A stretch of 64,000 nt of DNA from Clostridia bacterium (GCA_017399145.1 JAFQEG010000041.1:3323-67322); one strand, 5' to 3'. Shown: positions 34,217 to 63,520, counted from the first letter of the stretch. Notes: generated from the sequence alone by a model not told the origin. Numbers and translations are program-made.

Positions 34217-35179
34217 TTATAGTCCTAATACTGCTGCGCCAACGATACCAGCATCGTTGCCAAGCTCAGCAATCTTAATTTCTGTGCATTTTGAAGAATC
34301 CTTGTTGTAGGTTTCTGCATAAATCTTTTCCTTGAGTGGTACTAGCAAGTAATCCTTTTCGTTGCACACACCACCACCTATTGAAAGCACGTTAGGTTGG
34401 AAAATGTTAATCATATTTGTAATACCACAAGCTAGGTAAGAAATGTACTTGTCAACAATCTCAGCACCAAGCTCATCTCCCTGCTTCATAGCAGTGAAGG
34501 CAACTCTTGCGTTGCAGTTATCAACGTTTCCACCAATCAATTCCTCGATTTTTGTCTTACGACCCTCTTTTCTAGCTTGCAAAACTGCTTCCTTAGTCAT
34601 ATTTGTAAGACCGGTTGCGGAGCTGTATGTTTCCCAACAACCACGTCTACCACAGGTACATTGCTTTCCGTCCTTTTCAATAACAACGTGACCAAGCTCA
34701 GCACCTGCAAAGTTAAAGCCAGAGTAAACCTTACCATCAAGAACGATACCACCACCAAGACCTGTGCCAAGAGTAATCATAACAGAGAACTTAGCGCCTC
34801 TTGCAGCACCGGCAAGTGCCTCAGCCTTCGCAGCTGCATTTGCGTCGTTTTCGATGTAAACCTTCTTAATTCCCGTGTATTCCGTTAGCAAATCAGCAAT
34901 AGGGAAGTTTTTGAAGGGTAGGTTGTTTGCATACTCAACAACACCGGTTTCAGAGTTTGCTGTACCAGGTGTTGCAATACCTGCGTAAGCAATATCATCA
35001 AGAGTAAGTCCTGCCTCATTAATTAAGTCAAGACAAAGCTTACCCATATCCTTCATAATTTCCTTACCATCTCTGTGTGCAAGGGTAGGAACACTTTTCT
35101 TCTTTATAATTTGGTACTCGTTGTTAACGATACCAGCAGCGATATTTGTACCGCCTAAATCAATGCCTAAATAGTACAT
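34217..35179 (-). CDS. glk: ROK-family glucokinase
   Basis: MYYLGIDLGGTNIAAG start with AAGGAGAG RBS 7 nt upstream. ROK zinc motif CTCGRRGCWE. The listed start at 35230 adds 17 unsupported residues. Confidence 0.88.
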   Translation of the reverse strand: MYYLGIDLGGTNIAAGIVNNEYQIIKKKSVPTLAHRDGKEIMKDMGKLCLDLINEAGLTLDDIAYAGIATPGTANSETGVVEYANNLPFKNFPIADLLTEYTGIKKVYIENDANAAAKAEALAGAARGAKFSVMITLGTGLGGGIVLDGKVYSGFNFAGAELGHVVIEKDGKQCTCGRRGCWETYSSATGLTNMTKEAVLQARKEGRKTKIEELIGGNVDNCNARVAFTAMKQGDELGAEIVDKYISYLACGITNMINIFQPNVLSIGGGVCNEKDYLLVPLKEKIYAETYNKDSSKCTEIKIAELGNDAGIVGAAVLGL

Positions 35180-35526
35180 AGTCAATCTCTCCTTTTTTAC
35201 ATTACCTCTATTATAATATCCAAAAACCACAATGTCAATAGATTCACTTTAATTAACTAAAATTTTTGCCAGAAATTAAAATGTTAACACAATTTTACAA
35301 ATTTTGTTGATTTAGACAAGGTGTCAAAAAACAGCTTATATTTTTGTGCAATATGCATAAAACGATATTTGTAAAAATTTGTCCCTGCCAATCCTTGAAA
35401 GCCTTTGAATTTATTGAGCTGAAGCCACATTTTTACCTTGTTTGGTAAATATGCCAAAAAAACTTTTAGTTTTAATAAAATCTCTTATATAAAGGAAAAC
35501 GTCGAAAAATTGTGGAAAATATCAAC

Positions 35527-35555
35527 TTGACTTTATTTTCCTTATATGTTAAAAT
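35527..35555 (+). promoter_or_regulatory. Sigma-A type promoter of the 7-gene ABC operon
   Basis: TTGACT (35527-35532), 17-nt spacer, TGtTAAAAT (-10 at 35550-35555). Lies about 75 nt upstream of the ATG at 35629. Confidence 0.6.
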
Positions 35556-35628
35556 TACTTTAACCATTTACTCGCCCACGTGCGTATATATATGAGGGCG
35601 GTTTGGAAATAAACACGGAGGTTTTCTT

Positions 35629-38600
35629 ATGAGAAAGAGAGCGACAAGAGCACTGGCTATGCTTCTATGCTTAATAATGGTTTGCGCAACTATTGCCATT
35701 CCAGTTTCAGCTGCTAGCACCGGTAGCTCAACGGGAAATAAGGTCTCTATTTCTGATGTTAGTGAGATTTTGAACGCTATATCCTACACTAAGTACAGAG
35801 ATAGCATCCCGTCATTGAAGGTCGGCAACAAAGAGGTGCCACTTGACATATTCAATTATGAATACAAGTACACAGGCACAGCGCCATCAACCGACATCAC
35901 AAAAGACTACAATGGAGAGGAAAACACCTTGTACATTCCTGAAAAGGGAACAGTTACATGGTCCTTCCAAATCCCAGAGGGTGGTACTGGTAACTATACC
36001 ATCGAAATTGAATATTGCCACGCAACAAGCAAGGCGAACTCAATTGAAAGAATTTTCTATATCAACGGAGAGGTTCCATTCTCCGAGGCTCGTTCCATAG
36101 TTCTTTCAAAGGTTTGGGAATATCAATACCTAACCGATGACAAGGGCAACATAGTTTACAACGAGAACGGACAGCCTATGTTCGACATAGACAATAATGG
36201 AAACGATATTCGTCCAGTCGTTGGTATAGTTTCTGACCCAAATAAAAAGTGGGTTACATACGCAATTAGCGACTCAAACGGCTATGAGATTCACCCATTC
36301 CAATTCTACTTTGAGGAGGGTGCAAACACAATCTCTATGGAAAGCCAAAGAGAGCCTGTTATAATTAGGTCCATTAAGCTTGTACCATACAACAACCTTC
36401 CAAGCTATGAAAGCTACATACAACAAATCTTGAACAAGGTTGGTGGAACACTTGAGAGCAACAGAGTAACCGAGCAAATGATAAAGGATGCTATCAACAA
36501 GGGTAACATTATTATCGAGGCTGAGGCACCAGATAGAGTTTCAGCAGTTACTATGTACCCAGTTTACGATAGAACCTCTTCTATCACAAGTGGTGTTACA
36601 GGTCCACAATCTGCAGTTGTTACAAAGTACAACACAGCAGGTAAGGAGCAATGGCAAAACGTTGGTGAGTGGATGACCTATACCTTCAAGGCGCCAGCAA
36701 CAGGCTTCTATTCTATTTCTGTAAGATACAAGCAAGCCCTACTTAGTGGTATGTTTGTTTCAAGAAGATTGTACATCAATGGTGAAATTCCATTTGAGGA
36801 AGCAAACAACTGTCGTTTCCCATTTGCAGACCAATGGCAAACAATATTCCTAGGCGACGGAAATAAGACCTTCGAGTTTTATTTCGAGGAGGGCAAGGAA
36901 TACGAGCTTAAGCTAGAGGCAGTTTTAGGTGAAGAAATGGGTGCCGAGATTGAAAAGGTAAACGAGGCGCTTTCAGTAATCAACAACTGCTACCTTGAAA
37001 TCCTAAAGCTTACAGGTAGTGATCCTGACGCAAACCGTGACTACGACTTTGCAAGAGTAATGCCAGGCGTTATGCGTGATATGTTTGACCAATTCGTAAA
37101 CCTTAAGGGCGTTTATACAAGAATGGTTGCAAGCTCAGGTAAGGGCGAAAAGACATCAACAATTGAACAGGTTTATCTGTTGCTAGAAAAAATGGCAAAG
37201 GACGAAAAGCAGATACCTGGAAACCTTCAAACACTAAAATCCAATATCGGTTCACTCGGTACTTGGGTAAATAGTGCAAAGACTCAACCACTACAGGTTG
37301 ACCTTTATAGCGTTCAATCAATCGACAGTGCAGTCCCACAGGGCTCATCAGGCTTCTTTGCATCTCTTTGGTACGAGATTCAGCTATTCTTTGCAAGCTT
37401 CACAATCGACTATAATGACCTCGGTGGTGGTAGCGAGGAAGGCGTAGTTGGCGAAGACCACAAGGTAGATGTTTGGGTTGCAACAGGTCGTGACCAAGCA
37501 CAAATTATAAGAAACCTCATTGATAATAATTTCTCACAGGTAGCGGGACACGAGGGAATTAAGGTTAGCTTGAAGCTTATTTCAGGTGGTACACTTCTTC
37601 CATCTGTTCTTGCAGGCTCAGGTCCTGACGTTGCGCTTATGGAATCAAGCACAATGATTATCGACTATGCGCTTCGTGATGCTGTATATCCATTAAACGA
37701 GTTTATCGAAAAGGATACAGTATATGATGAAAAGGGTAATGTGGTAAGTAGCCCATTGGATGCGTTCCCAGATGCAGCTATGATTCCTCTTACACTTCAC
37801 GACTACGATATGAAGACAGACACAACCTATAAGAATTACTATGGCTTGCCAGATTCCTTAACCTTCCCAATGATGTTCTATCGTAAGGACGTTTTGGCAT
37901 CTCTTGAGCTTTCAGTACCAGAAACATGGGATGATATGCTTTCTATCCTACCTGTATTACAATACAACAACATGGAAATCGGTATTCAAAACGATATCTA
38001 TACATTTATATATCAAAGCGGTAATGAGGCTTACTCAAACAAGGGTATGTCAATCAACTTTGACGACCAGGGCGTACTAAACGCATTTACAAAGATGTGT
38101 AATATGTACACTCAATACTCACTACCATACACCTTTGATTTTGCAAACCGTTTCAGAACAGGTGAAATGCCAATCGGTATCGCACCATATACAACATGTA
38201 ACCAGCTCGCAGTATTCGCATCTGAGCTATCAGGTCTATGGACCTTCGTTCCAATGCCAGGCTATGAGTTGACAAATGAAGACGGTGAAACCTACATTAA
38301 TAACTGCGCTATTGCAACAGTTACAGGATGCTTAATGCTCAACGGCTGTGACAATAGAGAGGACACTTGGAAGTTTATGAAGTGGTACACCGCTAAGGAT
38401 TTCCAGGTTGCATATTCAAACGAAATCGTATCCATTATGGGTATTGCAGCAAGACCTGCAACAGCAAACTCTGAGGCAATCAGAGAGCTTCCTTGGACAA
38501 CAGAGGAGGCAGATAACATTCTTGCTCAATTTGAAAACCTTACAGCAGTTGAAAACCACCCAGGTAGCTATTACCTAGCTCGTTATATCAGCTTCGCATT

Positions 38601-39024
38601 CCTAGCTGCATACAACGAGGGCAAGGACCCAGCTGACGCACTTCTTTCATATGTTAATACTATTAACGCAGAAATTGAAAGAAGAAGAGAAGAATTTAAA
38701 AACGACGTAGCAGACGACGACCCCAATAAGAGATATATGTACACAGTTGCAGAGCTTGATGCATATTTACTTGCTGAGGGTACTGATAGCTATGAAGCGT
38801 TCCTTGACAATCTTGCCAAGGATGAGGCTAAGTACAACGAGTACGTAAAGACCTCACAAATTTATGAGCGCTACTTAGAAAAGCAAGAGGAATACGTAAC
38901 CTCAAGCGAGTACGAAAGCTACCTTGAAGCTCTTGCTAGCAACCAAGCAGAATTCGAAAAGTACAAGAAGGAATCCAGAATGTACGCTCGTTATCTTGAA
39001 TTGGTTGTAAACGTAGAAGACTAA
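35629..39024 (+). CDS. Giant secreted protein: two CBM-like beta-sandwich modules fused to a family-1 extracellular solute-binding domain
   Basis: Signal peptide ending VSA-AS with no lipobox. Internal duplication: GTVTWSFQIPEGGTGNYTIEIEYCHA...RIFYINGEVPFSEA versus GEWMTYTFKAPATGFYSISVRYKQA...RRLYINGEIPFEEA. SBP-like segment VDVWVATGRDQAQIIRNLIDNNF...LLPSVLAGSGPDVAL. The C-terminal tail has three Y-x-x-YLE repeats. Confidence 0.75.
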   Translation: MRKRATRALAMLLCLIMVCATIAIPVSAASTGSSTGNKVSISDVSEILNAISYTKYRDSIPSLKVGNKEVPLDIFNYEYKYTGTAPSTDITKDYNGEENTLYIPEKGTVTWSFQIPEGGTGNYTIEIEYCHATSKANSIERIFYINGEVPFSEARSIVLSKVWEYQYLTDDKGNIVYNENGQPMFDIDNNGNDIRPVVGIVSDPNKKWVTYAISDSNGYEIHPFQFYFEEGANTISMESQREPVIIRSIKLVPYNNLPSYESYIQQILNKVGGTLESNRVTEQMIKDAINKGNIIIEAEAPDRVSAVTMYPVYDRTSSITSGVTGPQSAVVTKYNTAGKEQWQNVGEWMTYTFKAPATGFYSISVRYKQALLSGMFVSRRLYINGEIPFEEANNCRFPFADQWQTIFLGDGNKTFEFYFEEGKEYELKLEAVLGEEMGAEIEKVNEALSVINNCYLEILKLTGSDPDANRDYDFARVMPGVMRDMFDQFVNLKGVYTRMVASSGKGEKTSTIEQVYLLLEKMAKDEKQIPGNLQTLKSNIGSLGTWVNSAKTQPLQVDLYSVQSIDSAVPQGSSGFFASLWYEIQLFFASFTIDYNDLGGGSEEGVVGEDHKVDVWVATGRDQAQIIRNLIDNNFSQVAGHEGIKVSLKLISGGTLLPSVLAGSGPDVALMESSTMIIDYALRDAVYPLNEFIEKDTVYDEKGNVVSSPLDAFPDAAMIPLTLHDYDMKTDTTYKNYYGLPDSLTFPMMFYRKDVLASLELSVPETWDDMLSILPVLQYNNMEIGIQNDIYTFIYQSGNEAYSNKGMSINFDDQGVLNAFTKMCNMYTQYSLPYTFDFANRFRTGEMPIGIAPYTTCNQLAVFASELSGLWTFVPMPGYELTNEDGETYINNCAIATVTGCLMLNGCDNREDTWKFMKWYTAKDFQVAYSNEIVSIMGIAARPATANSEAIRELPWTTEEADNILAQFENLTAVENHPGSYYLARYISFAFLAAYNEGKDPADALLSYVNTINAEIERRREEFKNDVADDDPNKRYMYTVAELDAYLLAEGTDSYEAFLDNLAKDEAKYNEYVKTSQIYERYLEKQEEYVTSSEYESYLEALASNQAEFEKYKKESRMYARYLELVVNVED

Positions 39025-39056
39025 GCTTCGAAAATACTAGAAGAAGGAGAATGTAA

Positions 39057-40124
39057 ATGGACGAACGTAATAATAATGTTGAAAATGACGTTTTAGTTGA
39101 CGACCAAAACGTTGAAAAAGCAGATTTACATGTAGAAGGTATTGTCGAAGATAATAGCCCAAAGGGTAATAAGGTAGCAAAGCCAAAGAAAAAGAAGGCA
39201 ATTGCAAGAAAAGATATGACCATGGCACAATGGACATGGCACGAAATGAAGAGAAATAAGGTTGCTTACCTTATGATTCTTCCATTTATGCTTGTATTCA
39301 TACTTTTCACAGTATTCCCAGTAGGACTTTCACTTGTACTCAGCTTTACAAACTTCAATATGCTATCCTTTAGCTGGGATATGTTTATTGGAATTGATAA
39401 CTATCTAAGATTGTTCTTCGAGGACGATATATTCCTACTCGCATGTAAGAACACCTTAGTATTCGCAATGATAACAGGACCTGTATCCTATATCCTTTCA
39501 TTCTTGGTTGCGTGGTTCATCAATGAGCTACCACCAAGAGTAAGAGCAGTGGTTACCCTTGTATTCTACGCACCATCAATTTCAGGTGCCGTATATACAA
39601 TTTGGGGTGTGCTTTTCTCAAACGACTCATATGGTTGGGTAAACGGTACACTTATGGATTTGGGCTTTATCGACTCCCCAATCCTTTGGTTCTATGACGA
39701 AAACTATGCAATGCCACTTTGTATCGTAGTTGCACTTTGGATGTCACTCGGTACGGCATTCCTTTCATTCATCGCAGGTCTTCAAACAATCGACAAGAGC
39801 TTGTTTGAGGCTGCAGCGGTTGACGGTATCAAGAACAGATGGCAGGAGCTATGGTACATTACCTTGCCTATGATGAGACCTCAGCTAATGTTCGGTGCGG
39901 TTATGGCTATCACAAGCTCATTCGGCTTTGGTGGTGTTGTTACAGCACTTTGTGGCTTCCCATCAGTAAACTATTCGTGTCATACAATTATGCACTGTCT
40001 AGATGACTATGGTAACCAACGTTGGGAGGTAGGTTATGCCTCCGCAATAGCCTTTGTGCTATTCTTAATTATGATTGGCGCTAACACGCTAGTTAATAAA
40101 ATGCTATCGAAGGTAGGACAATGA
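39057..40124 (+). CDS. Carbohydrate ABC transporter permease, MalF-type (pair 1), with an acidic N-terminal extension
   Basis: Six TM helices, YLMILPFMLVFILFTVFP start and EAA loop EAAAVDGIKNRWQELWYITLPMMRP. Confidence 0.88.
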   Translation: MDERNNNVENDVLVDDQNVEKADLHVEGIVEDNSPKGNKVAKPKKKKAIARKDMTMAQWTWHEMKRNKVAYLMILPFMLVFILFTVFPVGLSLVLSFTNFNMLSFSWDMFIGIDNYLRLFFEDDIFLLACKNTLVFAMITGPVSYILSFLVAWFINELPPRVRAVVTLVFYAPSISGAVYTIWGVLFSNDSYGWVNGTLMDLGFIDSPILWFYDENYAMPLCIVVALWMSLGTAFLSFIAGLQTIDKSLFEAAAVDGIKNRWQELWYITLPMMRPQLMFGAVMAITSSFGFGGVVTALCGFPSVNYSCHTIMHCLDDYGNQRWEVGYASAIAFVLFLIMIGANTLVNKMLSKVGQ

Positions 40125-40125
40125 T

Positions 40126-40998
40126 ATGCAAAAAATGAGAGTTAGAAATCATCAAGTTGTCCTCAACCGTTCGGTAGGAGGCGACGCAGGAATATTTTTC
40201 TTCCTTGCAATAATGGGAGCATTTATGTTCCTTCCTATGATATATGTAGTGGTACAATCCTTTAAGCCTCTTGATGAGCTATGGATGTTCCCACCTAAGT
40301 TTATCGTTATGAAACCTACACCTAAAAACTATGTAGACCTATTTACCTTGCTTAGTGATTCATGGGTTCCATTTTCGAGATACATATTCAACACAGTATT
40401 AATTACAGCTGCTGGTACCTTTGGTAACCTTGTATTATCATCACTTGCAGCTTATGCGGTATCAAAAATACCATTCCCAGGCAGAAAAGGCGTGTTCTGG
40501 ATTATTCAACGTTCACTTATGTTTACGTCCACAGTAACCGCTATTGCAAACTTTATGACATTGACAAGACTAGGACTTATGGATAACCCCTTAGCACTTA
40601 TTATTCCTGCGTGGGGCTCAACTATGGGTCTTTACCTAATGAAGCAGTTTATGGACTCCTCAATTTCCGATGCGGTGCTAGAAAGTGCCCGACTTGACGG
40701 ATGTAGTGAGTTTAGGACCTTCTGGACCATAGCAATGCCAATGGTTAAGCCTGCTTGGCTAACATTGATTATTTATTCATTCCAAGGCCTATGGAACACA
40801 GGTGCCTCTGCATACATATATAGTGAGCAGTGGAAAACCCTTAACTATGCTATCACTCAGATTACCGCAGGCGGTATCGCCCGTGCAGGTGCATCTGCTG
40901 CCGGCTCAGTTCTTATGATGATTGTTCCTATTCTTGTATTCGTAATATCACAAAGTAATATTATTGAAACAATGGCATCTAGTGGTATGAAGGATTAA
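40126..40998 (+). CDS. Carbohydrate ABC transporter permease, MalG-type (pair 1)
   Basis: EAA loop ESARLDGCSEFRTFWTIAMPMVKP. Starts 1 nt after the preceding stop. Confidence 0.88.
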   Translation: MQKMRVRNHQVVLNRSVGGDAGIFFFLAIMGAFMFLPMIYVVVQSFKPLDELWMFPPKFIVMKPTPKNYVDLFTLLSDSWVPFSRYIFNTVLITAAGTFGNLVLSSLAAYAVSKIPFPGRKGVFWIIQRSLMFTSTVTAIANFMTLTRLGLMDNPLALIIPAWGSTMGLYLMKQFMDSSISDAVLESARLDGCSEFRTFWTIAMPMVKPAWLTLIIYSFQGLWNTGASAYIYSEQWKTLNYAITQITAGGIARAGASAAGSVLMMIVPILVFVISQSNIIETMASSGMKD

Positions 40999-41014
40999 GG
41001 AGGGTAATGAGTAT

Positions 41015-43183
41015 ATGAATAAATTAGTAAGAATCATTTCCTTCGCCTTTGTATTGCTATTCGTTTTCGCAACAGTGATATCAGCTGCAACACCTTATGC
41101 TACCTATACTTATTCAATAGACGGCTTAGTGCTTGATTCACCTGATGCATACGTGCCATACGGCGACGGACCAATCACATCTGCAATCCTAGGACTTGAT
41201 AAGCCTATGCAGGACCCATCTGATATTGAATCAGATGCCAATGAAAACATTTATATTGCCGACAAGGGTAATAACAGAATTATCGTAACCAACAAGTTTT
41301 ACGAGGTTAAATATATAATTGAAAAGTTTACAAACTACGACGGAGTAGAGGATACCTTTAAATCCCCAGTTAGCACCTTTGTAGTTGACGACGGCGCCTA
41401 TAAGGGACTTTACGTTTGCGATAAGGACAACAAGAGAATTGTAGTATTCGACCAAGATACAGGCTTCCTTAAAAAGGTGTTTAACGAGCCTGAGATTGAA
41501 TTTGAGGACGACAACTCAGGCTATTCACCTGTAAGCTGTGTAGTTGACCAACACGGTAGAATTTACGTTGTTTCCGATAAAACAACAAAGGGTATCATAG
41601 TATTAACACCTAATGGTGACTTCATCAACTTTATCGGTGCACCAAAGGTTTCCGTTTCTGCTATGGAAAGCTTGCTACAAATCGTAAACCCAAATGCAGC
41701 ATCAAACATTTCACACGCAGCAACACCATACTCAAAGCTTGACCTTGATAATATGTCAAGAGACTTCGTTTATGGTACAGTTGTTTACACAACAGACGAC
41801 GACCAAAAGAACCAACAATCAGCAATCACAAGCAAAAATCCTGACTATGCGCCAGTAAGACTTCTCAATGCAAGTGGTAACGACATTATGCAAAGAAATG
41901 GCTTCTTCGCACCAGCAGGTGAGGTTGCGGTTGCTAAGACAGGCCCAACAACAGCTATCAATAAGAATGCACCTACCGGTGTTTCCTCAGTAGTTGACGT
42001 TGCAAGTGGTCGAGACGGAATTTGGTCAATCATTGACAACAAGCGTTCAAAGGTTTATACCTACGACCAAAACGGTAACCTACTTTACATCTTCGGTGAC
42101 GCAGGTGATAAATTCGGTAATATTTCAAAGGCGCAGGCTATTACATATCAGGGCGACAAGATAGTTGTACTTGACGTAACCTCACTTTCCTTTACCGTTT
42201 ACAGACAAACAGAGTATGCTAAAAAGCTTTCACAGGCTATTAGATATCAAAATGAAAGAAACTTTGACAAGGCAACAGAGGCATGGCAAGAGGTTCTAGC
42301 ATGGAACAACAACTTCGACACTGCTTACGTTGAAATGGGTAAGGCACTCTTCCGTGATAATCAACCTGAAAAGGCTCAAGAATACTTTATGAATGCCTTC
42401 GATACAGAAAACTATGCAGAGGCATTTAAGCAAACTCGTGCAAACCAAATGAAAATCTGGTTTATTCCTTTAATTATATTAGTAGTAGTATTGCTCATTG
42501 GTGTTGTTTACCTATTCAAGTGGGCAGGCAAGGTTAATAAGGCAACAGCTACTAAGGGTGGCAAGCGTACCTTCCTTGAGGAATTTATGTTCGGCTTCCA
42601 CTTGATGTTCCACCCATTCGATGGATATTGGGACCTAAAGCACGAAAAGCGTGGCTCAGTAAGAGCATCTATCGTTTACATTGTTTTAACAATCCTTGCA
42701 TTCTACTGGCAATCAGTAGGTCAGGGCTATTACTACAACCCACAAAATGTAACCAGTACAATATTTGCACAGGCATCATCAATTTTGATTCCTTTGTTCC
42801 TATGGATTATTGCTAACTGGTGCTTTACAACATTGTTTGATGGAGAGGGTAGCTTTAAGGATATCTTTATCGCAACCTCATACGGCTTATTCCCAGTACC
42901 TGCACTTGTAGTAGTTTCTACAATACTTACAAACTTCCTAGTTGGTACAGAGGCACAAATTACAACAATGATTGTAACTATTGCATACATTTGGATGGCA
43001 TTCCTAATTGTTATTGGTATGCAGGTAACACACGACTACTCAATGGGCAAGAATATTCTTACCGTAATAGCGACACTTGTTGGTATGATATTCATTATGT
43101 TTATTGCAGTATTGTTCACATCACTTATTTCTAAGATGACATCACTTGTAACAACAATTATAAGTGAATTAAGCTACAGGTAA
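41015..43183 (+). CDS. Fusion membrane protein: signal peptide, NHL-repeat beta-propeller, TPR-like segment, TM helix, then a Yip1-like 5-TM domain
   Basis: NHL-type blades (NIYIADKGNNRIIVTN, GLYVCDKDNKRIVVFDQ, GRIYVVSDKTTKGIIVLTPNG, SKVYTYDQNGNLLYIFG). TPR-like FDKATEAWQEVLAWNNNFDTAYVEMGKAL. TM helix IWFIPLIILVVVLLIGVVYLF. The polytopic C-domain starts FHLMFHPFDGYWDLK, read as Yip1-like from memory. Confidence 0.6.
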   Translation: MNKLVRIISFAFVLLFVFATVISAATPYATYTYSIDGLVLDSPDAYVPYGDGPITSAILGLDKPMQDPSDIESDANENIYIADKGNNRIIVTNKFYEVKYIIEKFTNYDGVEDTFKSPVSTFVVDDGAYKGLYVCDKDNKRIVVFDQDTGFLKKVFNEPEIEFEDDNSGYSPVSCVVDQHGRIYVVSDKTTKGIIVLTPNGDFINFIGAPKVSVSAMESLLQIVNPNAASNISHAATPYSKLDLDNMSRDFVYGTVVYTTDDDQKNQQSAITSKNPDYAPVRLLNASGNDIMQRNGFFAPAGEVAVAKTGPTTAINKNAPTGVSSVVDVASGRDGIWSIIDNKRSKVYTYDQNGNLLYIFGDAGDKFGNISKAQAITYQGDKIVVLDVTSLSFTVYRQTEYAKKLSQAIRYQNERNFDKATEAWQEVLAWNNNFDTAYVEMGKALFRDNQPEKAQEYFMNAFDTENYAEAFKQTRANQMKIWFIPLIILVVVLLIGVVYLFKWAGKVNKATATKGGKRTFLEEFMFGFHLMFHPFDGYWDLKHEKRGSVRASIVYIVLTILAFYWQSVGQGYYYNPQNVTSTIFAQASSILIPLFLWIIANWCFTTLFDGEGSFKDIFIATSYGLFPVPALVVVSTILTNFLVGTEAQITTMIVTIAYIWMAFLIVIGMQVTHDYSMGKNILTVIATLVGMIFIMFIAVLFTSLISKMTSLVTTIISELSYR

Positions 43184-43200
43184 AGGAGGAGGTCGCTAGT

Positions 43201-45645
43201 ATGAAAAATAGAATAATAGCACTCACCCTTGCCGTGTTAATGCTTATTCCTATGTTTGTAATGAATATAGGTGCAGAGAATGTTGAGCAAACAGCCGACT
43301 TCTCAAAGGAAGAGGCTCGCTTAGAGGCAGAAACAATGAATGTTTGTGCAGTAAGTGAAAATGGCTTGTACGAGCTTTGGTATGACGACACAACAGGTGA
43401 GCTTGCTGTAAGAAATACCAAAACTGATGAAATTACTCTATCCAATCACTACGATGCACAGGATATGGAAAGGGTAGGTAAGGACGGCACACCAATTAAA
43501 GCAACTGCAGAGAGACTTTCACAGGTATATCTAAACTATACCACAATAAAGTCTAACTCATCAACTCAGCTTAATAGCTATGAGCACTGTGTTTTCTATA
43601 AGAGACACACCTATGACACACTAAGACATGGTATAACAATTCACTATGTTTTCAAGTCAACCCCATCAGATGTGGACACCTTTAGCTTCTCGGTTAAATA
43701 TGAAATTACAAACGATGGCTTAAGGGCAAGCTTGCTTGGCTCAACTATTAAGTATGACAAAACAAAATACGTGCTAAACACAATTTCAATCTTGCCTGAC
43801 TTTAATGCCGCAAAGAGAACTGATAAGGGCTACACCTTTATTCCTGACGGTAGTGGCGCACTTGTTAGATTTGAGGATGTTTATGGCAAGAATATCCAAG
43901 TAATCATTTCTGAGGCTATGTATGGTAATGACTATGCATACTATCAGGTAGGTATTAAGAATTCTGAGCAATATACAATGCCAGTATTCGGCTTGGTAAA
44001 TAATTCCGTTGCAAACGGTACAGGCTTCTTCGCAATTATCGAGGAGGGTGATTCCTTTGCAATGCCAACATCAGCACACAACATAATGACCAACTCAGCA
44101 TATGCAGTATTTAAGATTACACCATCTGACGTTTACGACCTTGCAAAGTTTGATAAAAACGGCACACAAAGTAACTCATCAATGTCAATCACCTCTGCAT
44201 ATGATTACAAGGGTAATTATACAGTAAACTACAAGCTTTTAACTGCTGATGAAACTGCTAAGGCTAATAACCTTACAGACACGTACGACACAAGCTATAT
44301 GGGTATGGCACAGTATTACAGAGATTACCTCGTTAAAAATGGTAGCCTAAAGAAAAATGAAAAGATTGAAGAGGATGTTAAGCTTTTCATTGAGGTATTC
44401 GGCTCAATCGAGGTTGACGATAAGGTGCTTACATTCCCAGTTAGACGTAACAAGCCACTTACAACCTTTGCTGATGTAAAGGCAATGCAACAATATTTCA
44501 CAAATGCTGAGGAAAATGAAATAACTAGCATTAAGAATATGTCCTTTATTCTAAAGGGCTTTGCAAACGGTGGTATTTTGTCCAACTATCCAACAAAAAT
44601 GAAGTGGCAAAAGGATGTAGGAGGCTACAACGGACTCGTTGACCTTATTAAGGATTCTCAAGATAAGGGCTACGAGGTTACTCCAGACGTAGATTTCGTA
44701 TATTCCTATGGCACAACGTGGTTTAGTGGCTATTCTAACGATAAGAATGGTGTAAGAACACTAGACAATCGTTTCACAACAAAGCGTATTTACTACGCTT
44801 CAACACAAACCTTTGAGCGTACAGGTGGCGTTGCAGTATCAAGTGCATCATTTGTGTACCTATACGATAAATTCTTCAATTCTATTAAGGATATAGAATT
44901 TACAACTCTAGCAACAAGAACACTTGGCTCTGACTTAAACTCTGACTTTGATAAGGATGAGTTTTACGACAGAGAATCATCAAAGAATAACACCGTAGCC
45001 CTTCTTAAGGCACTTACAGGTGCAAACGATAGAAAGGCTTACAATCTAATTGTTAATGCGGGTAACTCTTACGCAATCCCTTATGCAAGCACAGTTTTGA
45101 GTGCAGCACTTGATAGCTCACGCCGTACAAATGCAAGCGAGGCAATTCCATTCCTAGGTCTTGTATATCACGGCTCAATAGAGTATGCAGGTAATGCTCT
45201 TAACACAGAGGGTGACAGCAAGTATATGTTCCTAAAGGCACTTGAAAATGGTGCATCACTTTACTACACACTTGCAATGCAAAACTATGAATATTTGAAG
45301 TTTAATGAGGAATATAACCAATATTACTCAATAAGCTACGAAAATCTAAAGGATACAATTCTTGAAACCTATAAGGAATACAACGAGCTTATGAAGGGCA
45401 AGCAAGACGATTACATCGTTGAGCACGCATTCATGAACACAGAGTATGGCTACAACGTAAAAAGAGCTGAGGACAACAAAGAACTTAACAACTCACTAGT
45501 TGTGCTCGTTGTTTACGAGGACGGAGAAGGCTTTATTCTTAACTACAACGACTATGCAGTAGTAGTTGAGTACGAGGGCACAACCTATAACGTTGATGGC
45601 TTAGGTTATGCAAGATATACTAAAACAACACAGGAGGTAGAGTAA
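43201..45645 (+). CDS. Secreted 814-aa protein of unknown function (possibly DUF5696-like)
   Basis: Signal peptide MKNRIIALTLAVLMLIPMFVMNIGA. No catalytic motif that I recognise. The DUF5696 assignment comes only from recalling that such proteins are annotated next to YIP1-family and sugar permease genes. Confidence 0.4.
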   Translation: MKNRIIALTLAVLMLIPMFVMNIGAENVEQTADFSKEEARLEAETMNVCAVSENGLYELWYDDTTGELAVRNTKTDEITLSNHYDAQDMERVGKDGTPIKATAERLSQVYLNYTTIKSNSSTQLNSYEHCVFYKRHTYDTLRHGITIHYVFKSTPSDVDTFSFSVKYEITNDGLRASLLGSTIKYDKTKYVLNTISILPDFNAAKRTDKGYTFIPDGSGALVRFEDVYGKNIQVIISEAMYGNDYAYYQVGIKNSEQYTMPVFGLVNNSVANGTGFFAIIEEGDSFAMPTSAHNIMTNSAYAVFKITPSDVYDLAKFDKNGTQSNSSMSITSAYDYKGNYTVNYKLLTADETAKANNLTDTYDTSYMGMAQYYRDYLVKNGSLKKNEKIEEDVKLFIEVFGSIEVDDKVLTFPVRRNKPLTTFADVKAMQQYFTNAEENEITSIKNMSFILKGFANGGILSNYPTKMKWQKDVGGYNGLVDLIKDSQDKGYEVTPDVDFVYSYGTTWFSGYSNDKNGVRTLDNRFTTKRIYYASTQTFERTGGVAVSSASFVYLYDKFFNSIKDIEFTTLATRTLGSDLNSDFDKDEFYDRESSKNNTVALLKALTGANDRKAYNLIVNAGNSYAIPYASTVLSAALDSSRRTNASEAIPFLGLVYHGSIEYAGNALNTEGDSKYMFLKALENGASLYYTLAMQNYEYLKFNEEYNQYYSISYENLKDTILETYKEYNELMKGKQDDYIVEHAFMNTEYGYNVKRAEDNKELNNSLVVLVVYEDGEGFILNYNDYAVVVEYEGTTYNVDGLGYARYTKTTQEVE

Positions 45646-45648
45646 AAT

Positions 45649-47502
45649 ATGAAGAAATCAGTAAGACTCGTATGTGGCTCTAGCTCCGCATCAAAAAATC
45701 ATGTAACAGTACCTGTTTCCGTAAATGGAAAGAAGGTAGAATTCACCAACGAGGAGCTTGAAAAGCTTCTCAAGGTGAACCAACAAGCACCGGTTGAGGA
45801 ACCAATTGTTGAGGAAACTCCAGTAGTTGACGAAGCGCCAGCTGAGGAAGAACCAATTATTGAGGAAATTCCAGTAGTTGACGAAGCACCAGCTGAGGAA
45901 GAGCCAATTATCGAGGAAATTCCAGAAGTTGACGAATCACCAGCTGAGGAAGAGCCAGTTATTGAGGAAATTCCAGTAGTTGACGAAGCACCAGCTGAGG
46001 AAGAACCAGTTATCGAGGAGATTCCAGTAGTTGACGAAGTCCCAGCCGAGGAAGAACCGGTTGTTGAGGAAATTCCAGTAGTTGACGAAGCACCAGTTGA
46101 GGAAGAGCCAGTTATCGAGGAAATTCCAGCAGTTGACGAAGCACCAGCTGAGGAAGAGCCAATTATCGAGGAAATTCCAGAAGTTGACGAAGCACCAGCT
46201 GAGGAAGAGCCAGTTATCGAGGAAATTCCAGTAGTTGACGAAGCACCAGCTGAGGAAGAACCAATTATCGAGGAAATTCCAGTAGCTGACGAAGTACCAG
46301 CTGAGGAAGAGCCAGTTATCGAGGAAATTCCAGTAGTTGACGAAGCACCAGCTGAGGAAGAACCAATTGTCGAGGAAACTCCAGTAGTTGACGAAGTACC
46401 AGCTGAGGAAGAACCAATTGTTGAGGAAACTCCAGTAGTTGACGAAGTTCAATCCGAGGAAGAGCCAGTTGTTGAGGAAAATCCAATAGCTGTCGAGGAA
46501 CCAATTGCTGCACCGGTAGTAGCTGAAGAAACGCCAATGGTTGAAAAGGAGCCAGTTGTTCATCCAAAGAAAAAGCAAAAGAGAGGGCTTTCACTAACTA
46601 CTAAGAGGTCGCTTTCAGGTTGGCTATTCGTTTTACCATTCGTTATTGGTATTTTGTTCATTTACGCACCAATCGTATTCGATTCTGTAAGATTCACATT
46701 TATGGACAGTACGTCCTTGTATAGTGGCTCAGGACTTGAATTTGTAGGTTGGGAAAACTACAATTACATTTTCAACAAGGACCCATGGTTCTCAATCACG
46801 ATCGTTGACGGTCTTAAGGATTTGATACTTCAAATTCCTGCAATTGTAATATTCGCTCTCTTTATGGCTATTATTCTTAACCAAAAGATGAGAGGAAGAA
46901 CTGTATTCCGTGCAATCTTCTTCCTACCTGTTATTCTTTGTACAGGTATCATTGATACAATTGATACAAACTCTGCATTTATGAGCCAAGTTGAAAACTC
47001 TCAAGGTGGCATTGACGACAACACAGGTGCAGAATCAGAGGGAATTATGTCAGCCCTAGACATTGAAATGCTTCTATCTAATATCAAAATGGGTAGTGAG
47101 CTAGTTGACATTGTAACAACACTTATTAACAATATCTTTGATATCGTAAGCCGTTCAGGTGTACAAATGCTTATCTTCCTATCAGGCTTGCAATCTATCT
47201 CACCAGCGATTTATGAATCCTGTCAGGTAGAGGGCGCAACCGCTTGGGAAACCTTCTGGAAGATAACACTTCCAATGATAAGCCCAATGATTCTTGTAAA
47301 CGCAGTTTACACAGTAATCGACTTGTTTACAGCTGCAGATAACCGTGTAATGTCCTACATATTCGGTAGCCAAATTTATGGTAAGAGTATGTTTGCAGAG
47401 GCAGGCGCAATGGCTTGGGTATACATAGGTATCGTACTTGTATTTATTGTACTGGTAGCAATATTACTAAAATCGGTAGTATTCTATCAGAGAAGAGACT
47501 AA
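45649..47502 (+). CDS. Carbohydrate ABC transporter permease, MalF-type (pair 2), with a ~300-aa N-terminal extension containing 17-aa acidic tandem repeats
   Basis: The permease core starts after KKKQKRGLSLTTKRSLSGWLFVLPF. EAA loop ESCQVEGATAWETFWKITLPMISP. The N-terminal region is (EEPVIEEIPVVDEAPAE)n. Confidence 0.85.
   Translation: MKKSVRLVCGSSSASKNHVTVPVSVNGKKVEFTNEELEKLLKVNQQAPVEEPIVEETPVVDEAPAEEEPIIEEIPVVDEAPAEEEPIIEEIPEVDESPAEEEPVIEEIPVVDEAPAEEEPVIEEIPVVDEVPAEEEPVVEEIPVVDEAPVEEEPVIEEIPAVDEAPAEEEPIIEEIPEVDEAPAEEEPVIEEIPVVDEAPAEEEPIIEEIPVADEVPAEEEPVIEEIPVVDEAPAEEEPIVEETPVVDEVPAEEEPIVEETPVVDEVQSEEEPVVEENPIAVEEPIAAPVVAEETPMVEKEPVVHPKKKQKRGLSLTTKRSLSGWLFVLPFVIGILFIYAPIVFDSVRFTFMDSTSLYSGSGLEFVGWENYNYIFNKDPWFSITIVDGLKDLILQIPAIVIFALFMAIILNQKMRGRTVFRAIFFLPVILCTGIIDTIDTNSAFMSQVENSQGGIDDNTGAESEGIMSALDIEMLLSNIKMGSELVDIVTTLINNIFDIVSRSGVQMLIFLSGLQSISPAIYESCQVEGATAWETFWKITLPMISPMILVNAVYTVIDLFTAADNRVMSYIFGSQIYGKSMFAEAGAMAWVYIGIVLVFIVLVAILLKSVVFYQRRD
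45796..46509 (+). repeat. In-frame 51-bp tandem repeat: 13 near-perfect copies plus 1 degenerate copy
   Basis: Units start at 45796 and every 51 nt up to 46458. Consensus is GAGGAAGAGCCAGTTATCGAGGAAATTCCAGTAGTTGACGAAGCACCAGCT. A degenerate 14th unit runs to about 46509. Confidence 0.95.
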
Positions 47503-47514
47503 GGAGGGGTAGAA

Positions 47515-48555
47515 ATGGAAACTGTTAAGGTTAAAAGAGAAACCAAAAACAAAATCCGTGTAGATTTTGAAAGAGCCCCACTTGGCGAAAGATTGAAGGC
47601 AAAGTTTTTGTCAATGCACTTCTTAAAGAATGTAGTATTCGTTATATTTAGATTTGTTCTATTGCTTGGCGTATCCTACGTAATTCTTTATCCATACATT
47701 ACAAAGATTTTCGGTTCATTTATGAACCCAGCAGACTTTGAGGACGTAACAGTTGTACTTCTTTCAAAGTCACCAAACATTCATCAGTATCAAGCAATCA
47801 TTTCGGAAAACGGATATCTAATGGCACTGTTAAATACGTTTTTAGTATCCATTTCCGTAGCACTATTGCAGACACTTGTATGCGCCCTTGTAGCTTATGG
47901 CCTTGCAAAGTTCAAGTTTAAGGGAAACAACATTGTTTTCTTCCTTGTTATCTTTACAATGATGGTACCACAAGAGGCAATCAAGTTTGCAATGCAACAC
48001 TTCTTTAACTATTTTGGCTCAAACAACCTATTTGGTATGCTACTAAGCTCCATGGGAATAATAGAGTACGGCTTTATTGATACAATATTCCCACTCTATA
48101 TGCTATCTCTATTTGGACTTGGCTTTAAAAATGGCTTGTTTATCTTCATGCTAAGACAGTTCTTTAGAGGCGTACCTGATGAGCTTGAGGAGTCAGCATA
48201 CGTTGACGGCTCCAACACCTTTAGAACCTTCTTTAGTATTATTATTCCACTTGCAATTCCAATGCTAATCACAGTATTTATATTCGCATTTGCATGGCAA
48301 TGGACAGACGACTTCTATTCATCTATATTCTTCTCAAAGGGATACTTCGAAAAAGAGGGCGCAATGCAATTTATGAGTAGTGTAGCGACTAAGATACCAC
48401 CTTCATTGAAGGCGCAGGCTGAATCAATAACGCTTTACGGCTCTGCAATTACAGGCACCTCATCAATTCTCGTGGCATTGCCATTGATTATTGCATACGT
48501 ATTCCTACAGAATAAGATTGTTCAAGGTATCGAGCGTAGTGGTATTGTAGGTTAA
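47515..48555 (+). CDS. Carbohydrate ABC transporter permease, MalG-type (pair 2)
   Basis: EAA loop ESAYVDGSNTFRTFFSIIIPLAIP. Six TM helices with a long loop after TM1. Confidence 0.85.
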   Translation: METVKVKRETKNKIRVDFERAPLGERLKAKFLSMHFLKNVVFVIFRFVLLLGVSYVILYPYITKIFGSFMNPADFEDVTVVLLSKSPNIHQYQAIISENGYLMALLNTFLVSISVALLQTLVCALVAYGLAKFKFKGNNIVFFLVIFTMMVPQEAIKFAMQHFFNYFGSNNLFGMLLSSMGIIEYGFIDTIFPLYMLSLFGLGFKNGLFIFMLRQFFRGVPDELEESAYVDGSNTFRTFFSIIIPLAIPMLITVFIFAFAWQWTDDFYSSIFFSKGYFEKEGAMQFMSSVATKIPPSLKAQAESITLYGSAITGTSSILVALPLIIAYVFLQNKIVQGIERSGIVG

Positions 48556-48640
48556 TTTTTACAAACTTGCTGGGCAAAAGCCCAGTGAGTTTGATAAAAG
48601 TCACAATATTTGCAAAAATCAAAAAAAATTCCAAAAAGTG

Positions 48641-48669
48641 TTGACAAACACTACATATTGTGATAAAAT
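48641..48669 (+). promoter_or_regulatory. Sigma-A type promoter with extended -10, upstream of the small ORF
   Basis: TTGACA (48641-48646), 17-nt spacer, TGaTAAAAT (-10 at 48664-48669). Confidence 0.6.
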
Positions 48670-48728: not shown

Positions 48729-48899
48729 ATGAAATACGTATCACCTAAATATGAATACGAAGTACTTAATACTGAAGATATAATGTTTATTTCTCTAGGA
48801 AATGGAATCTTGGGAACATTAATCCCAGGTGGAGCTGACGAAGATGACAACACAAACGACGTTAGCGTAGAGGTTGATGTAGGTAACCTACTTCCATAA
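48729..48899 (+). CDS. Small acidic protein (56 aa), not in the ORF track; paralog of 3130-3297
   Basis: AAGGAGGG RBS, ATG at 48729, TAA at 48897-48899. Translation: MKYVSPKYEYEVLNTEDIMFISLGNGILGTLIPGGADEDDNTNDVSVEVDVGNLLP. It has its own promoter and terminator. Confidence 0.65.
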   Translation: MKYVSPKYEYEVLNTEDIMFISLGNGILGTLIPGGADEDDNTNDVSVEVDVGNLLP

Positions 48900-48918
48900 C
48901 TTAATTAAGGCGATAAAG

Positions 48919-48949
48919 AAATCCGCACGTTTTTTGTGCGGATTTTTTT
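48919..48949 (+). terminator. Rho-independent terminator
   Basis: AAATCCGCAC-gtttttt-GTGCGGATTT hairpin followed by a T-run. Confidence 0.85.
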
Positions 48950-48998
48950 GTTGTCATTTTTTACAAATTATACCTGCATATTTTGGGATTTATGTCAA

Positions 48999-49062: not shown

Positions 49063-52000
49063 ATGAAAAATAAGTTTTTAACACTAGTCTTTATCCTTGC
49101 ATTTGTTATAGTAATGGCATTTTCAGTAACAGCTGCAACAACCGTTACACCAAGTGCCGAGGACCTAGGCGACTGTGTAATTAATGGAGAGGTTGTCAAC
49201 GGAGATGGCTTACTTGTAACTCAGGGTATGTCCTACACCGTCCTTGACGAGGAATCAAAAACAGTTGCACTTTCCTCACGTGGTAGTGCTGATTCCTTTA
49301 CAGGTGCAGTAGTAATTCCTTCAACAATCAAAATAAATGGAGAGGACTATTCCGTTACAAAAACAAACCCTTATGTTTTTAAGGGTACAAGCATCACAAA
49401 AATTTACGTTCCTGATACAGTAGAAACAATCGCAGGCGATAGCGGACAAGATAACGGTACCTTTGCAAACTGCCATTATATTAGCGAGGTATATATTGGC
49501 ACAGGAATTAAGGTGCTTGGTCGTTTTGCCTTTACAAGCATTGGTAAATACTCACCTGTTAAGGTATTCTACGTAGCAGGTAGAGTACAAGAGTTAGGAG
49601 ACTATGCATTCAATGCAGCAAACTTTGCAGATGATTGCCAAATCACCTTTGACTCCACCGATATGAGAAAAATCGGTATAAGTGTATTTGAAAATGGCTC
49701 GAAATCCTTGAAGAAAATCGACTCACACGTACTTGAATCAATCGGCGAAAGAGGCTTTGCATCAAGTAAGAGCCTTGAATACGTTTTGATTCCTGAATAC
49801 TGTAAGGTTGGTCTGTATGCCTTTAATGGTACAGACAATCTTCAAACTGCAATTATCCTTTGTGCAGATGACGAGATTAAGGAAATTCCGAAGGAAATGT
49901 TTAGCTCGGGAACAGATGGCTACAAGACCAATATATATATTAAAGGTAGAGTAATAGCTACCGAGTGGGCAGTTTTGCCAGGCAGAGCCTTTAATATCTA
50001 TATGGACTCTTATGAAAATGCAAGATATTTTGCAGATTCAATTATGAAATACCAGCACAACAGAATAGCAAACGGCACGTGGTACTTCTGCACACCATAC
50101 AACGGATACTATTGCTTCTCTGCAAATAGTAGCTTTAGCTTGACGCCTAAAACAGACGTAACGGAAGCACCTCACACGGCTATTTATAACAAAGGTGTTG
50201 AAACAAAGGCAACCTGTAACCAATACGCAGGTGTAGGCGATATTTGTGAGGTATGTGGCGCATACTTTAACGTAACTCAAACAGGTAACGAGTACGACGA
50301 AAATGCACACAACTACGTACTAAAATCCCACACAGAACCTCAATGCACTGTAACAGGCTTGGATGTTTACGAATGTACCTACTGTAAGGATACAAAGGAT
50401 GAAGAAATCCCTGCTTTAGGCCACGACTATGCTCAAACGGTAATCGCACCAACCTGTTCGTTAATAGGCTATACAAACAACGTTTGTAAGCGTTGTGAAT
50501 ACTCAATAATCACAGATAAAATCGAAAAAACACCTCACAGCTACGTAGGAAATAGCTTTGTACTTGACGGCATTAATATTTCTTACAAAACAACCTGTGA
50601 GTATTGTGACTCAATAGGTGAGGCTGTAAATACAACACTTGTAAACAAGTGCTATATTGAGGGCTACGGTATTTTTGACGCAACGCTTGAATATCTTTAT
50701 GTTTCAGAGGATGGCACAGCTACCCCGTTAGGCACAACCTTTGACAACGCAGTAATTTACTTCCCATCCTATGTTGAAATAGGTGGCAATGTAGTAGAGG
50801 TAAAGACAATTCAAGGCTTTACAGGCTTATCAATCAAGGGCGTATACATTCCAGACACAGTTACAAGAATTGTAGGTGGCTCAAATGGTACAGGATGCTT
50901 CCAAAATGCTTATGACCTTAAGAATATAGTTGTTGGTAAGGGCATTACCGAGCTTGAAGCATACGCATTCTGTATGTATGGCACAAGCATAAATGTTGAT
51001 GAATTTATCTTTACTAACACAATCCAAAGACTTGGCTCACGTTCCTTGGCACGTATAAACGCATCATCAAGCGATATTCCTTATCAGTTTAATACACGTT
51101 TAACCTATGTAGGCGCTTATGTTTCTGTTTACGACAGAACTGGTGGCAACATTTTAAGAGAGGTTTATATTACAAACGATTGTGATTTAACTGAAAAATT
51201 TGCTTTTAATGGTTCTAATGGCTTAAAGCGTGCTTACATTGAGGGTGGCGAAACAGAAGCTACTGCAAAGGAGCTAACTCAAGAAATGTTTAGTGGCGAT
51301 GCAAAGGACCTGGAAATCTTAATAAGAGGCTACGTAAAAGCAACAGGTCAAGCAGTATTGCCAACTGCTGGTGCACGATTATTCTTCAAAACTATTGACC
51401 AAGCACAGGTGTTTGCAGCAAGTGCAAGAGCACAGTACTATTATGAAAGAGCCTCAAACTCCGCTTGGTATATATGTGAAAGCACTGAAACTGATAGATA
51501 CCTACTTGACAATTTCACAACTACGGCTAGCGAAATTACATTCAAGATACAATCAGGCTATAAACGTTACGAGGCTGGTTTAGAGGTATCAACAGAAAGC
51601 ACCTGTACACAAGGTGGCACAGTTTCTTCATCTTGCTTTTTGTGTGGTAAGGTGCTAGAAAATACAGTTTCAGACCCACTACCACATAGATACGATGGTG
51701 GTGTGTTCGAGGTAACACCAATCTGTTGCGTTACAGGCTCAGTAAAATATACCTGCCTTGATTGTGGCGATGAAATTTTTGTTGCAACAGGACTTGACCT
51801 AAGTGCACATAATCTCGATACCGAAAATGGCGCAGTAATCGTAGATATTACGTACGCAAACGGCTTCCTTGCAAATGGTACGCAAATCGTTTGCTGTGGC
51901 ACATGCTTCGAAAACGTTGAGGGAGAGACAGTTGCACCAATCTTTGTAAACCTTGGCTATACCTATTCAGAAACAGGCTCAGGCGCAATTATGCAGGGCT

Positions 52001-58444: not shown

Positions 58445-58488
58445 AATAGTACAAATAAGTGCAAATTGCACTAAACAAGGAGAAATTT

Positions 58489-63328: not shown

Positions 63329-63520
63329 CTTAAATCCTTTCATTTTATGATATATAATTATAAAATCAATACAACCCTGTGTCAATAAAAAACAATGAAT
63401 TTTTTGTAAAAAATCACACAACACTCACACAAATATATTAAATACTTGATATTTATATATTATTATGATATTATAAATAGTAGAATAAACTAAACATTAA
63501 CAAAAAATTACGAGGTAATT

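Follow-up and report, generated by a model that had tools for sequence, protein, structure and literature searches.

The 64,000-nucleotide (nt) stretch of Clostridia bacterium DNA analysed here (GCA_017399145.1 JAFQEG010000041.1:3323-67322; hereafter the window) contains a cassette of seven genes, g1 to g7, which encode a giant solute-binding protein (SBP), two pairs of ATP-binding cassette (ABC) sugar permeases, a Yip1-domain membrane protein and a protein of the family DUF5696 (Table 1). Calling of open reading frames (ORFs) in the window placed all seven on the same strand, with intergenic gaps of 32, 1, 16, 17, 3 and 12 nt. A terminator scan of the + strand, from the promoter to the end of g7, found nothing except a short hairpin at 48472 within g7; a second short hairpin, CTGGGC-AAAA-GCCCAG, lies 3' of g7 (48570-48585) and has no good T tract. 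The GC content of the operon matches that of its surroundings, and several gut-metagenome contigs carry identical copies of the cassette. The ORF coordinates and the promoter scan bear out the seven-gene operon, with its gap sizes and single promoter, that had been proposed in a previous sequence-only reading of the window, and the Pfam domains predicted there (BPD_transp_1, SBP_bac_1/8, NHL, TPR, Yip1 and DUF5696) were all recovered.

Table 1. Coordinates of the cassette and of features beside it, counted from the first nucleotide of the window (AF2, AlphaFold2; aa, amino acid residues).
Feature	Coordinates	Strand	Basis
Promoter TTGACT-17-TAAAAT, sigma-70-type, extended TG upstream	35527..35555	+	promoter scan
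Alternating purine-pyrimidine tract, strict, 18 nt, CACGTGCGTATATATATG, flanks CGCCC/GGGCG	35577..35594	+	5' leader
g1, solute-binding protein, 1131 aa, secreted or N-anchored	35629..39024	+	Pfam SBP_bac_1/8, AF2, Foldseek
g2, MalF/UgpA-type permease, pair 1	39057..40124	+	BPD_transp_1; NCBIfam nearest UgpA/MalF
g3, MalG/UgpE-type permease, pair 1	40126..40998	+	BPD_transp_1; NCBIfam nearest UgpE/MalG
g4, NHL-TPR-Yip1 membrane protein	41015..43183	+	Pfam, PDB profile matches, hydropathy
g5, DUF5696 protein, 814 aa, secreted or N-anchored; N-domain, (beta/alpha)8 barrel, C-domain	43201..45645	+	Pfam, AF2, Foldseek, hhalign
g6, MalF-type permease, pair 2, 617 aa	45649..47502	+	BPD_transp_1; NCBIfam nearest UgpA/MalF
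g7, MalG-type permease, pair 2	47515..48555	+	BPD_transp_1; NCBIfam nearest UgpE/MalG
ROK-family sugar kinase, glucokinase-like, no DNA-binding domain	34217..35230	-	Pfam ROK 2e-61

A scan with one genome per species showed that at least 581 genomes have a relative of g5, and the best 80 loci from these genomes were used for the counts of synteny and flanking genes given below. The order g1 to g7 on one strand was found in 80 of the 80 loci wherever the contig permits, down to about 33% identity in g5, and the same order is present in the cultured species Butyrivibrio fibrisolvens D1 (Lachnospiraceae, on pNP243) and Paenibacillus cellulosilyticus (Bacilli). The gene order is accordingly conserved beyond this genome, as the sequence-only reading had expected, and the annotation pattern which it named (YIP1 family, DUF5696 and sugar permeases) is precisely what RefSeq shows. 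The median identity to the window protein across the loci was 69% for g2 and g3, 52% for g6 and g7, 46% for g4, 42% for g1 and 36% for g5. In the loci with common flanking genes, the conservation of g2 and g3 equals that of Asd, aspartokinase and the ROK kinase, and exceeds that of RecG.

Each of the four permeases has about six hydrophobic segments and an intact EAA loop, and the loops are kept across 72-76 homologues apiece, in agreement with the earlier view that neither pair looks decayed; the four loop sequences quoted in that reading are all present. The heterodimer of a MalF-like and a MalG-like subunit with EAA loops that characterises CUT1 transporters is found twice in the cassette (g2/g3 and g6/g7). 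The identity is 26% between g2 and g6 and 23% between g3 and g7, and the two pairs are ancient paralogues. The length of g6 is due to an acidic repeat tail, its orthologues usually having about 325 aa. The N-terminal cytoplasmic tail of about 290 aa contains a repeat region (residues ~45-300) with about 14 copies of an acidic 17-aa unit rich in Pro, Glu and Val, which corresponds in the DNA to 13.8 tandem copies of a 51-bp period with 90% matches (45799-46503). This tail is coding yet lineage-specific, since it has about 430 aa in L007, the closest relative, and is absent from most loci. A short conserved N-terminal motif, VRL.C.S...NGKKVE, stands ahead of the repeat, and an antisense ORF at 45937-46578 is a by-product of it.

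The g1 protein consists of a signal peptide, two beta-sandwiches resembling carbohydrate-binding modules (CBMs; residues ~101-253 and 294-432), a four-helix bundle (435-551) and a CUT1 SBP fold (612-1022). The Pfam matches to SBP_bac_1/8 at residues 640-935 (59.6 and 57.5 bits) exceed the cut-offs, and the AF2 model, with a predicted local distance difference test score (pLDDT) of 75, matched oligosaccharide SBPs in Foldseek (E 1e-16; target-normalised template modelling score (TMt) 0.7-0.79). The two N-terminal sandwiches are internal repeats of each other (BLASTP E 9e-10), with weak matches to Golvesin_C and, in some homologues, matches to CBM_35; because the SBP domain dominates the Foldseek search with the whole model, the fold class of the sandwiches is taken solely from these weak Pfam matches. 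The SBP match, the internal repeat and the weak Golvesin_C and CBM_35 matches are in line with the previous description of g1 as two CBM-like modules fused to a solute-binding protein. Among 659 homologues of g1, the invariant residues are spread over the full length of the protein.

The g4 protein begins with a signal peptide, followed by an extracytoplasmic part with an NHL propeller and TPR (residues 25-480), a transmembrane segment (484-500), a basic cytoplasmic loop and the Yip1 domain (529-700). The Yip1 match (PF04893) scored 56.5 bits against a cut-off of 28.6, with five hydrophobic segments at 547-700 by hydropathy, and the NHL repeats scored 29-30.5 bits against a cut-off of 20; among PDB profiles, the NHL domains of TRIM71 and Thin matched with E 6e-9. 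In Butyrivibrio, the counterpart of g4 is split into two separate genes, NHL and YIP1. A bacterial protein of the Yip1 family, YknW, modulates the assembly of an ABC transporter complex (PMC4887032).

The g5 protein matched DUF5696 (PF18952) at residues 142-790 with 390.9 bits (cut-off 25.6; E 1e-116). A signal or anchor is present at its N-terminus and no anchor at its C-terminus, as in 118 of 120 homologues. The AF2 model built with 35 homologues as input (pLDDT 85; predicted template modelling score 0.87) matched, in a Foldseek search of the PDB, a 3,6-anhydro-D-galactosidase of glycoside hydrolase (GH) family GH129 (E 5e-30, probability 1.00). The same search matched the GH129 alpha-N-acetylgalactosaminidase NagBb (E 4e-25, TMt 0.74), the GH101 endo-alpha-N-acetylgalactosaminidases (about 1e-16 to 1e-14) and members of GH31 and GH36 (about 1e-12). 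At the sequence level, the profile of the DUF5696 family was in register with two stretches of NagBb in a PDB profile search (E 0.4-0.6), and NagBb-like gene fragments bear both Glyco_hydro_101 and DUF5696 matches. A search with a 69-aa NagBb fragment returned only 18 short gene fragments; L088 was too fragmented to use, and the frameshifted gene at L087:3066-4962, reassembled by hand from three frames, served for comparison instead. Against this rebuilt GH129 homologue, hhalign gave 94.5% for the g5 profile, and 94.7% with E 6e-8 across the whole barrel for a broader profile. The NagBb-like gene of L087, a metagenome contig, lies in three frames and adjoins genes for an AraC regulator, an SBP and an alpha-L-arabinofuranosidase. 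The sequence models of GH129 and GH101 themselves gave no match to g5, DUF5696 being the sole Pfam match at E<=0.01. By the model and the profile comparison, g5 has a GH129/GH101 glycosidase fold, and the cassette thus includes a hydrolase-like component; the previous statements that the operon has no hydrolase and that this protein has no recognisable catalytic motif are thus contradicted by the Foldseek and hhalign matches. Clustered at 50% identity, the DUF5696 family falls into 5,259 clusters, of which 3,060 match at E<=1e-30, and its long variants (1180-1530 aa) have no Pfam domain besides DUF5696.

The catalytic residues of GH129 were then sought in g5. The nucleophile of NagBb is D435, after barrel strand 4, and its acid/base residue is E478, after strand 5; as a check on these numbers, counting back from the aligned VPLYNLVYH in the rebuilt homologue reaches a D (in AYLDVF) and an E (in PSSEEV). 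The g5 residue aligned with the nucleophile was D578 in the broad-profile hhalign run, where local confidence was low, and A571 in other alignments, and the global and local hhalign runs conflict around barrel strands 4 and 5. Among 168 diverse DUF5696 members, D582 (LNSDF) is kept in 95% and N622 is invariant (168 of 168). The universal polar residues of the family are D216, D244, R591, N622, H657, N668 and E682; in the AF2 model D216 and D244 belong to the N-terminal domain, and D582 and the later conserved residues follow predicted barrel strands. E682 aligns with a Leu in GH129. The residue pattern is compatible with either a relocated acid/base or a non-catalytic binding site.

To compare the histories of the seven proteins, we computed pairwise distance matrices for each of them over the 59 complete loci and compared the matrices by Spearman correlation. 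The coefficients were 0.73-0.83 within {g1,g2,g3} and 0.85-0.89 within {g4,g5,g6,g7}, with g5 at 0.88-0.89 against g6 and g7, and were 0.31-0.54 between the two blocks, except for g1-g4 at 0.69 (range for this pair, 0.69-0.79). Among all 35 possible splits into three and four proteins, {g1,g2,g3}/{g4-g7} ranked first (0.39 versus 0.22 for the runner-up), and the split persisted without the window's own clade (48 distant loci). Protein type cannot explain the blocks because each of them mixes soluble and membrane proteins. The rate changes are common to the members of each module, as functional or physical coupling predicts. The sequence-only reading had seen one multi-component machine here; its conserved and multi-component character, beyond the CUT1 model of one SBP and one permease pair, stands, but in place of a single unit the cassette looks like two co-evolving modules, module A (g1-g3) and module B (g4-g7).

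No gene for a MalK-type ABC ATPase is present in the 64-kb window and no regulator gene adjoins the operon, as had been noted before. Within about 10 kb of the cassette, no MalK-type ATPase was found in 75 of the 80 loci, and the five matches that did occur in the flanks of the 80 loci were unrelated, none of them being upstream. A 973-aa protein encoded on the - strand at 60503-63424 was considered as the ATPase of the cassette and rejected, being a MacB-like ABC_tran+FtsX fusion, not MalK-like and without relation to the sugar cassette. In Paenibacillus, an ATPase gene (annotated ugpC; ABC_tran+OB_MalK+TOBE_2) stands directly before g1 and heads the operon, which is consistent with the earlier idea of a shared ATPase. 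An orphan MsmK serves some of the CUT1 permease sets that lack an ATPase, two of six in the study concerned (PMC3302838), and the missing ATPase of the present cassette fits this documented use of an orphan MsmK by several CUT1 systems. The combination of a regulator with linked catabolic carbohydrate-active enzymes (CAZymes), by which polysaccharide-utilisation loci are recognised, is absent in the window and in most flanks, and was seen in the Butyrivibrio copy only.

The surroundings of the cassette differ between lineages. The window is a core chromosomal block (priA-fmt-rsmB-rlmN-prpC-prkC-rsgA...recG, in which prpC encodes a PP2C phosphatase and prkC a Ser/Thr kinase), and housekeeping genes (recG, ROK kinase, iscS-like, mnmA, asd and aspartokinase) flank the cassette in most of the 80 loci. 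The ROK gene, which scored 237 bits with TIGR00744 and is under the cut-off of 260, lies directly upstream of the cassette and divergent from it in the window; it is also upstream in 22 related loci, divergently in 21, and the synteny of the cassette with ROK, asd and aspartokinase spans about 10-20 loci. In Butyrivibrio fibrisolvens D1, the cassette is on the 243-kb replicon pNP243, where a GH43 gene overlaps g1 by 11 nt, g7 is followed by two additional SBP genes, and a divergent histidine kinase/response regulator pair lies upstream; these surroundings are typical of a glycan-utilisation context. The recG gene is close to the cassette in the window (32013-34148), and in Paenibacillus cellulosilyticus the cassette is three genes downstream of recG (L090 1-1564). 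This proximity in two classes hints at a very old synteny or a preferred insertion site. On the 3' side of the operon in the window, a 1100-aa BspA-type LRR_5 surface protein is encoded at 49063-52365, and LRR_5 proteins are also encoded downstream in six other loci. Between g7 and this gene lies a 56-aa ORF (beginning MKYVSPKYEYEVLNTEDIM; 48729-48899) that has its own near-consensus promoter (48641-48669; 11/12, with TG), is followed by a strong terminator (48909-48955) and gives no match in Pfam; it is conserved directly 3' of g7 in L007 (60% identity), L008 and L009 and farther 3' in L011. A 653-aa ORF with a GTG start (58459-60420) has no Pfam match at E<=1e-5, and has an LSGGQ-like motif and no Walker A.

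The 5' leader of the operon contains a further conserved feature. A TTGAC-TTT...TG.TA.AAT element is present at the equivalent position in 11 related loci (L007-L016 and L079), and in 9 of these 11 close loci sharing the promoter the leader has, at the position equivalent to the tract in Table 1, an alternating purine-pyrimidine run of 16-33 nt, which is often palindromic and sits 15-25 nt 3' of the conserved -10 box. The sequence of the tract differs from locus to locus while the alternation is retained (L007, L008, L009, L011-L014 and L079); perfect palindromes are, for example, TATACACG/CGTGTATA, ATATACG-CACA-CGTATAT and ATATGCG-TATGTG-CGCATAT. By a rough estimate, an alternating run of at least 16 nt is expected by chance in about 0.002 of such leaders. 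The tract could be the operator of a regulator whose gene lies elsewhere, or an element that acts through DNA structure. An RNA structure of the leader was considered and rejected, as its fold stability in the window is ordinary (z -0.56) and no Rfam family matched at the gathering score. No cre-like CcpA site was found in the promoter region of the window.

Taken together, we favour, with about even confidence, the interpretation that the cassette encodes a two-module CUT1-type system which captures, trims and imports a complex glycan, with a MalK/MsmX-type ATPase encoded elsewhere in the genome. Module A would be a canonical binding-protein-dependent CUT1 importer, whose g1, with its two CBM-like modules and the helical spacer, could keep a polymer or a large oligosaccharide bound at the cell surface. 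Module B would be a second complete translocon with two extracytoplasmic partners, in which g5 would trim or present the glycan at the membrane, and g4 may pack its Yip1 domain beside the permeases and tether the secreted partners through its NHL/TPR ectodomain. A MalK/MsmX-type ATPase would power both translocons, supplied from another locus in this genome and from the operon itself in Paenibacillus. In this scheme, import as the direction of transport, a glycan as the substrate, catalysis by g5, scaffolding by g4 and any physical supercomplex are inferred.

Several observations weigh against this interpretation. D578 is invariant in the close g5 family but is kept in only 65% of the 168 diverse DUF5696 members, and the acid/base Glu of GH129 has no invariant acidic counterpart among them, the different alignments placing N622, a gap or S630 opposite it. 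The signal peptides of g1 and g5 are of the SPase I type without a lipobox, leaving no evident attachment to the cell. In most loci the flanking genes are of the housekeeping kind and include neither a regulator nor another CAZyme, which is unusual for a nutrient-specific locus. Finally, the blocks in the mirror-tree comparison can also arise from module-specific rate shifts without contact between the proteins.

An alternative concerning g5, which we consider unlikely, is that DUF5696 is non-enzymatic, a re-wired or dead ectodomain of GH fold that serves as a receptor or ancillary subunit of pair 2 in place of a binding protein. An analogous case is that of the GH13-like heavy chains 4F2hc and rBAT, which accompany the SLC7 transporters. 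In favour of this alternative, no SBP is encoded within module B, the distances of g5 track those of g6 and g7, and the nucleophile-aligned residue is not universal. In addition, an invariant Asn (N622) follows barrel strand 5, where the enzymes of GH101 and GH129, described as GH13-like (PMC8106489), have the acid/base Glu. However, the universal carboxylates D216, D244, D582 and E682 could make a relocated catalytic pair, and pair 2 may use ordinary SBPs, given the two extra SBP genes after pair 2 in Butyrivibrio.

A bolder version of the same idea, to which we give slightly less credence, retains an enzymatic or recognition step: module B would be a new kind of ABC import unit without a classical binding protein, in which a GH129-like ectoprotein whose acid/base residue has been relocated or lost, held on its own permease pair by the Yip1-propeller protein, couples polymer cleavage or recognition directly to translocation. 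Module A would then feed or share the polymer, and together the modules would form a near-housekeeping supercomplex of Bacillota that is ancient and has been inherited vertically.

The machinery might also serve the cell's own envelope glycans (turnover or recycling of secondary cell-wall polymer, capsule or spore polysaccharide) and not food, which we likewise regard as rather doubtful. This would explain the core-genome position and the lack of a dedicated regulator, and it is favoured by the location in a core chromosomal block, near recG in Paenibacillus too, by the synteny with ROK, asd and aspartokinase, pair 1 evolving as slowly as these housekeeping enzymes, and by the near-consensus promoter with no regulator or cre site found in the window. 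On the other hand, the Butyrivibrio cassette is on a 243-kb replicon beside GH43, with a divergent sensor kinase/regulator pair, the conserved element in the leader points to control in trans, and no envelope-biosynthesis gene is linked to the cassette in any locus examined.

That the cassette is simply two independent CUT1 importers co-transcribed with a membrane protein and an enzyme to which they have no relation is, in our view, quite improbable. The distance structures do differ between the modules, and module A alone is a textbook importer, but all 80 loci have one and the same gene order, which extends over two classes of Bacillota, the gaps in the window are 1-32 nt, neither module occurs alone at any locus, and g4 correlates with both blocks.

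Anomer-retaining glycosidases, to which the families related to g5 by fold belong, can transglycosylate, which together with the unusual acid/base residue and the core-genome context would allow module B to export or assemble an extracellular glycan with g5 as an extracellular transglycosylase; this is very improbable, because BPD_transp_1 permeases with EAA loops (type I ABC systems) are, to our knowledge, importers, and the flanks of the 80 loci contain no gene for a glycosyltransferase, flippase or polymerase.

A full-text literature search found no paper naming DUF5696 or describing the seven-gene neighbourhood, the literature on YIP1-family proteins and on Naumoff's GHL families gave no characterisation of the cassette, and a 2026 review of glycoside transporters does not mention MsmK or MsmX. 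The earlier statement that the cluster is uncharacterised therefore agrees with the literature searched. The parts come from known families (CUT1 ABC, Yip1, NHL and a sister group of GH129/GH101), whereas that literature contains no description of their fixed combination in seven genes, of the second permease pair or of DUF5696 itself.

In textbooks, an ABC sugar importer consists of a single binding protein with a pair of permeases and a pair of ATPase subunits. To this plan the cassette adds four fixed parts, namely the second pair, a giant CBM-bearing SBP, the Yip1-propeller protein and the glycosidase-like protein, and at least 581 species-level genomes of Bacillota from gut and soil carry it, as well conserved as core metabolic enzymes. 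If the products form one assembly, it would be a way for monoderm bacteria to couple the processing of surface glycans to uptake without an outer-membrane Sus-like system. The placement of DUF5696 in the GH129/GH101 fold offers glycobiologists concrete substrates and mutants, and with two carriers in culture, Paenibacillus cellulosilyticus and Butyrivibrio fibrisolvens D1, genetics and cryo-electron microscopy become feasible.

The closest known systems are the CUT1 importers (MalEFGK2, MsmEFGK and the pneumococcal Raf/Mal systems with orphan MsmK), with which the cassette has in common the oligosaccharide SBP fold, the MalF/MalG-like permeases and the EAA loops. The MalK-type OB/TOBE ATPase is common to these importers and the Paenibacillus operon, and is absent from the operon here, as in streptococci. 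Unlike them, the cassette has two permease pairs and an 1131-aa SBP with CBM-like modules and a helical bundle, and fixes a Yip1-NHL-TPR protein and a GH-like protein between the pairs. Polysaccharide utilisation loci of Gram-positive bacteria similarly combine an extracellular glycan-active protein with an SBP-dependent importer, and the Butyrivibrio copy adds a regulator and GH43, whereas the window and most loci have housekeeping flanks without a regulator or extra CAZyme. With the GH129/GH101 proteins NagBb, ZgGH129, EngBF and SpGH101, g5 has in common the three-domain fold (TMt up to 0.74) and the motifs MPxFG, LTTF, GG.xG, VP..G.VYH and YM...L.NG. However, their identity to g5 is just 10-14%, D216, D244 and E682 are invariant in the DUF5696 family only, and g5 is always encoded between permease genes. 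In Bacillus YknWXYZ, as in the cassette, a bacterial Yip1-domain protein is encoded with an ABC complex, and there it is needed for the assembly of that complex (PMC4887032). YknYZ is a MacB-type exporter and YknW has no ectodomain, whereas g4 joins its Yip1 domain to about 450 aa of propeller/TPR ectodomain and is encoded with permeases of the type I importer class.

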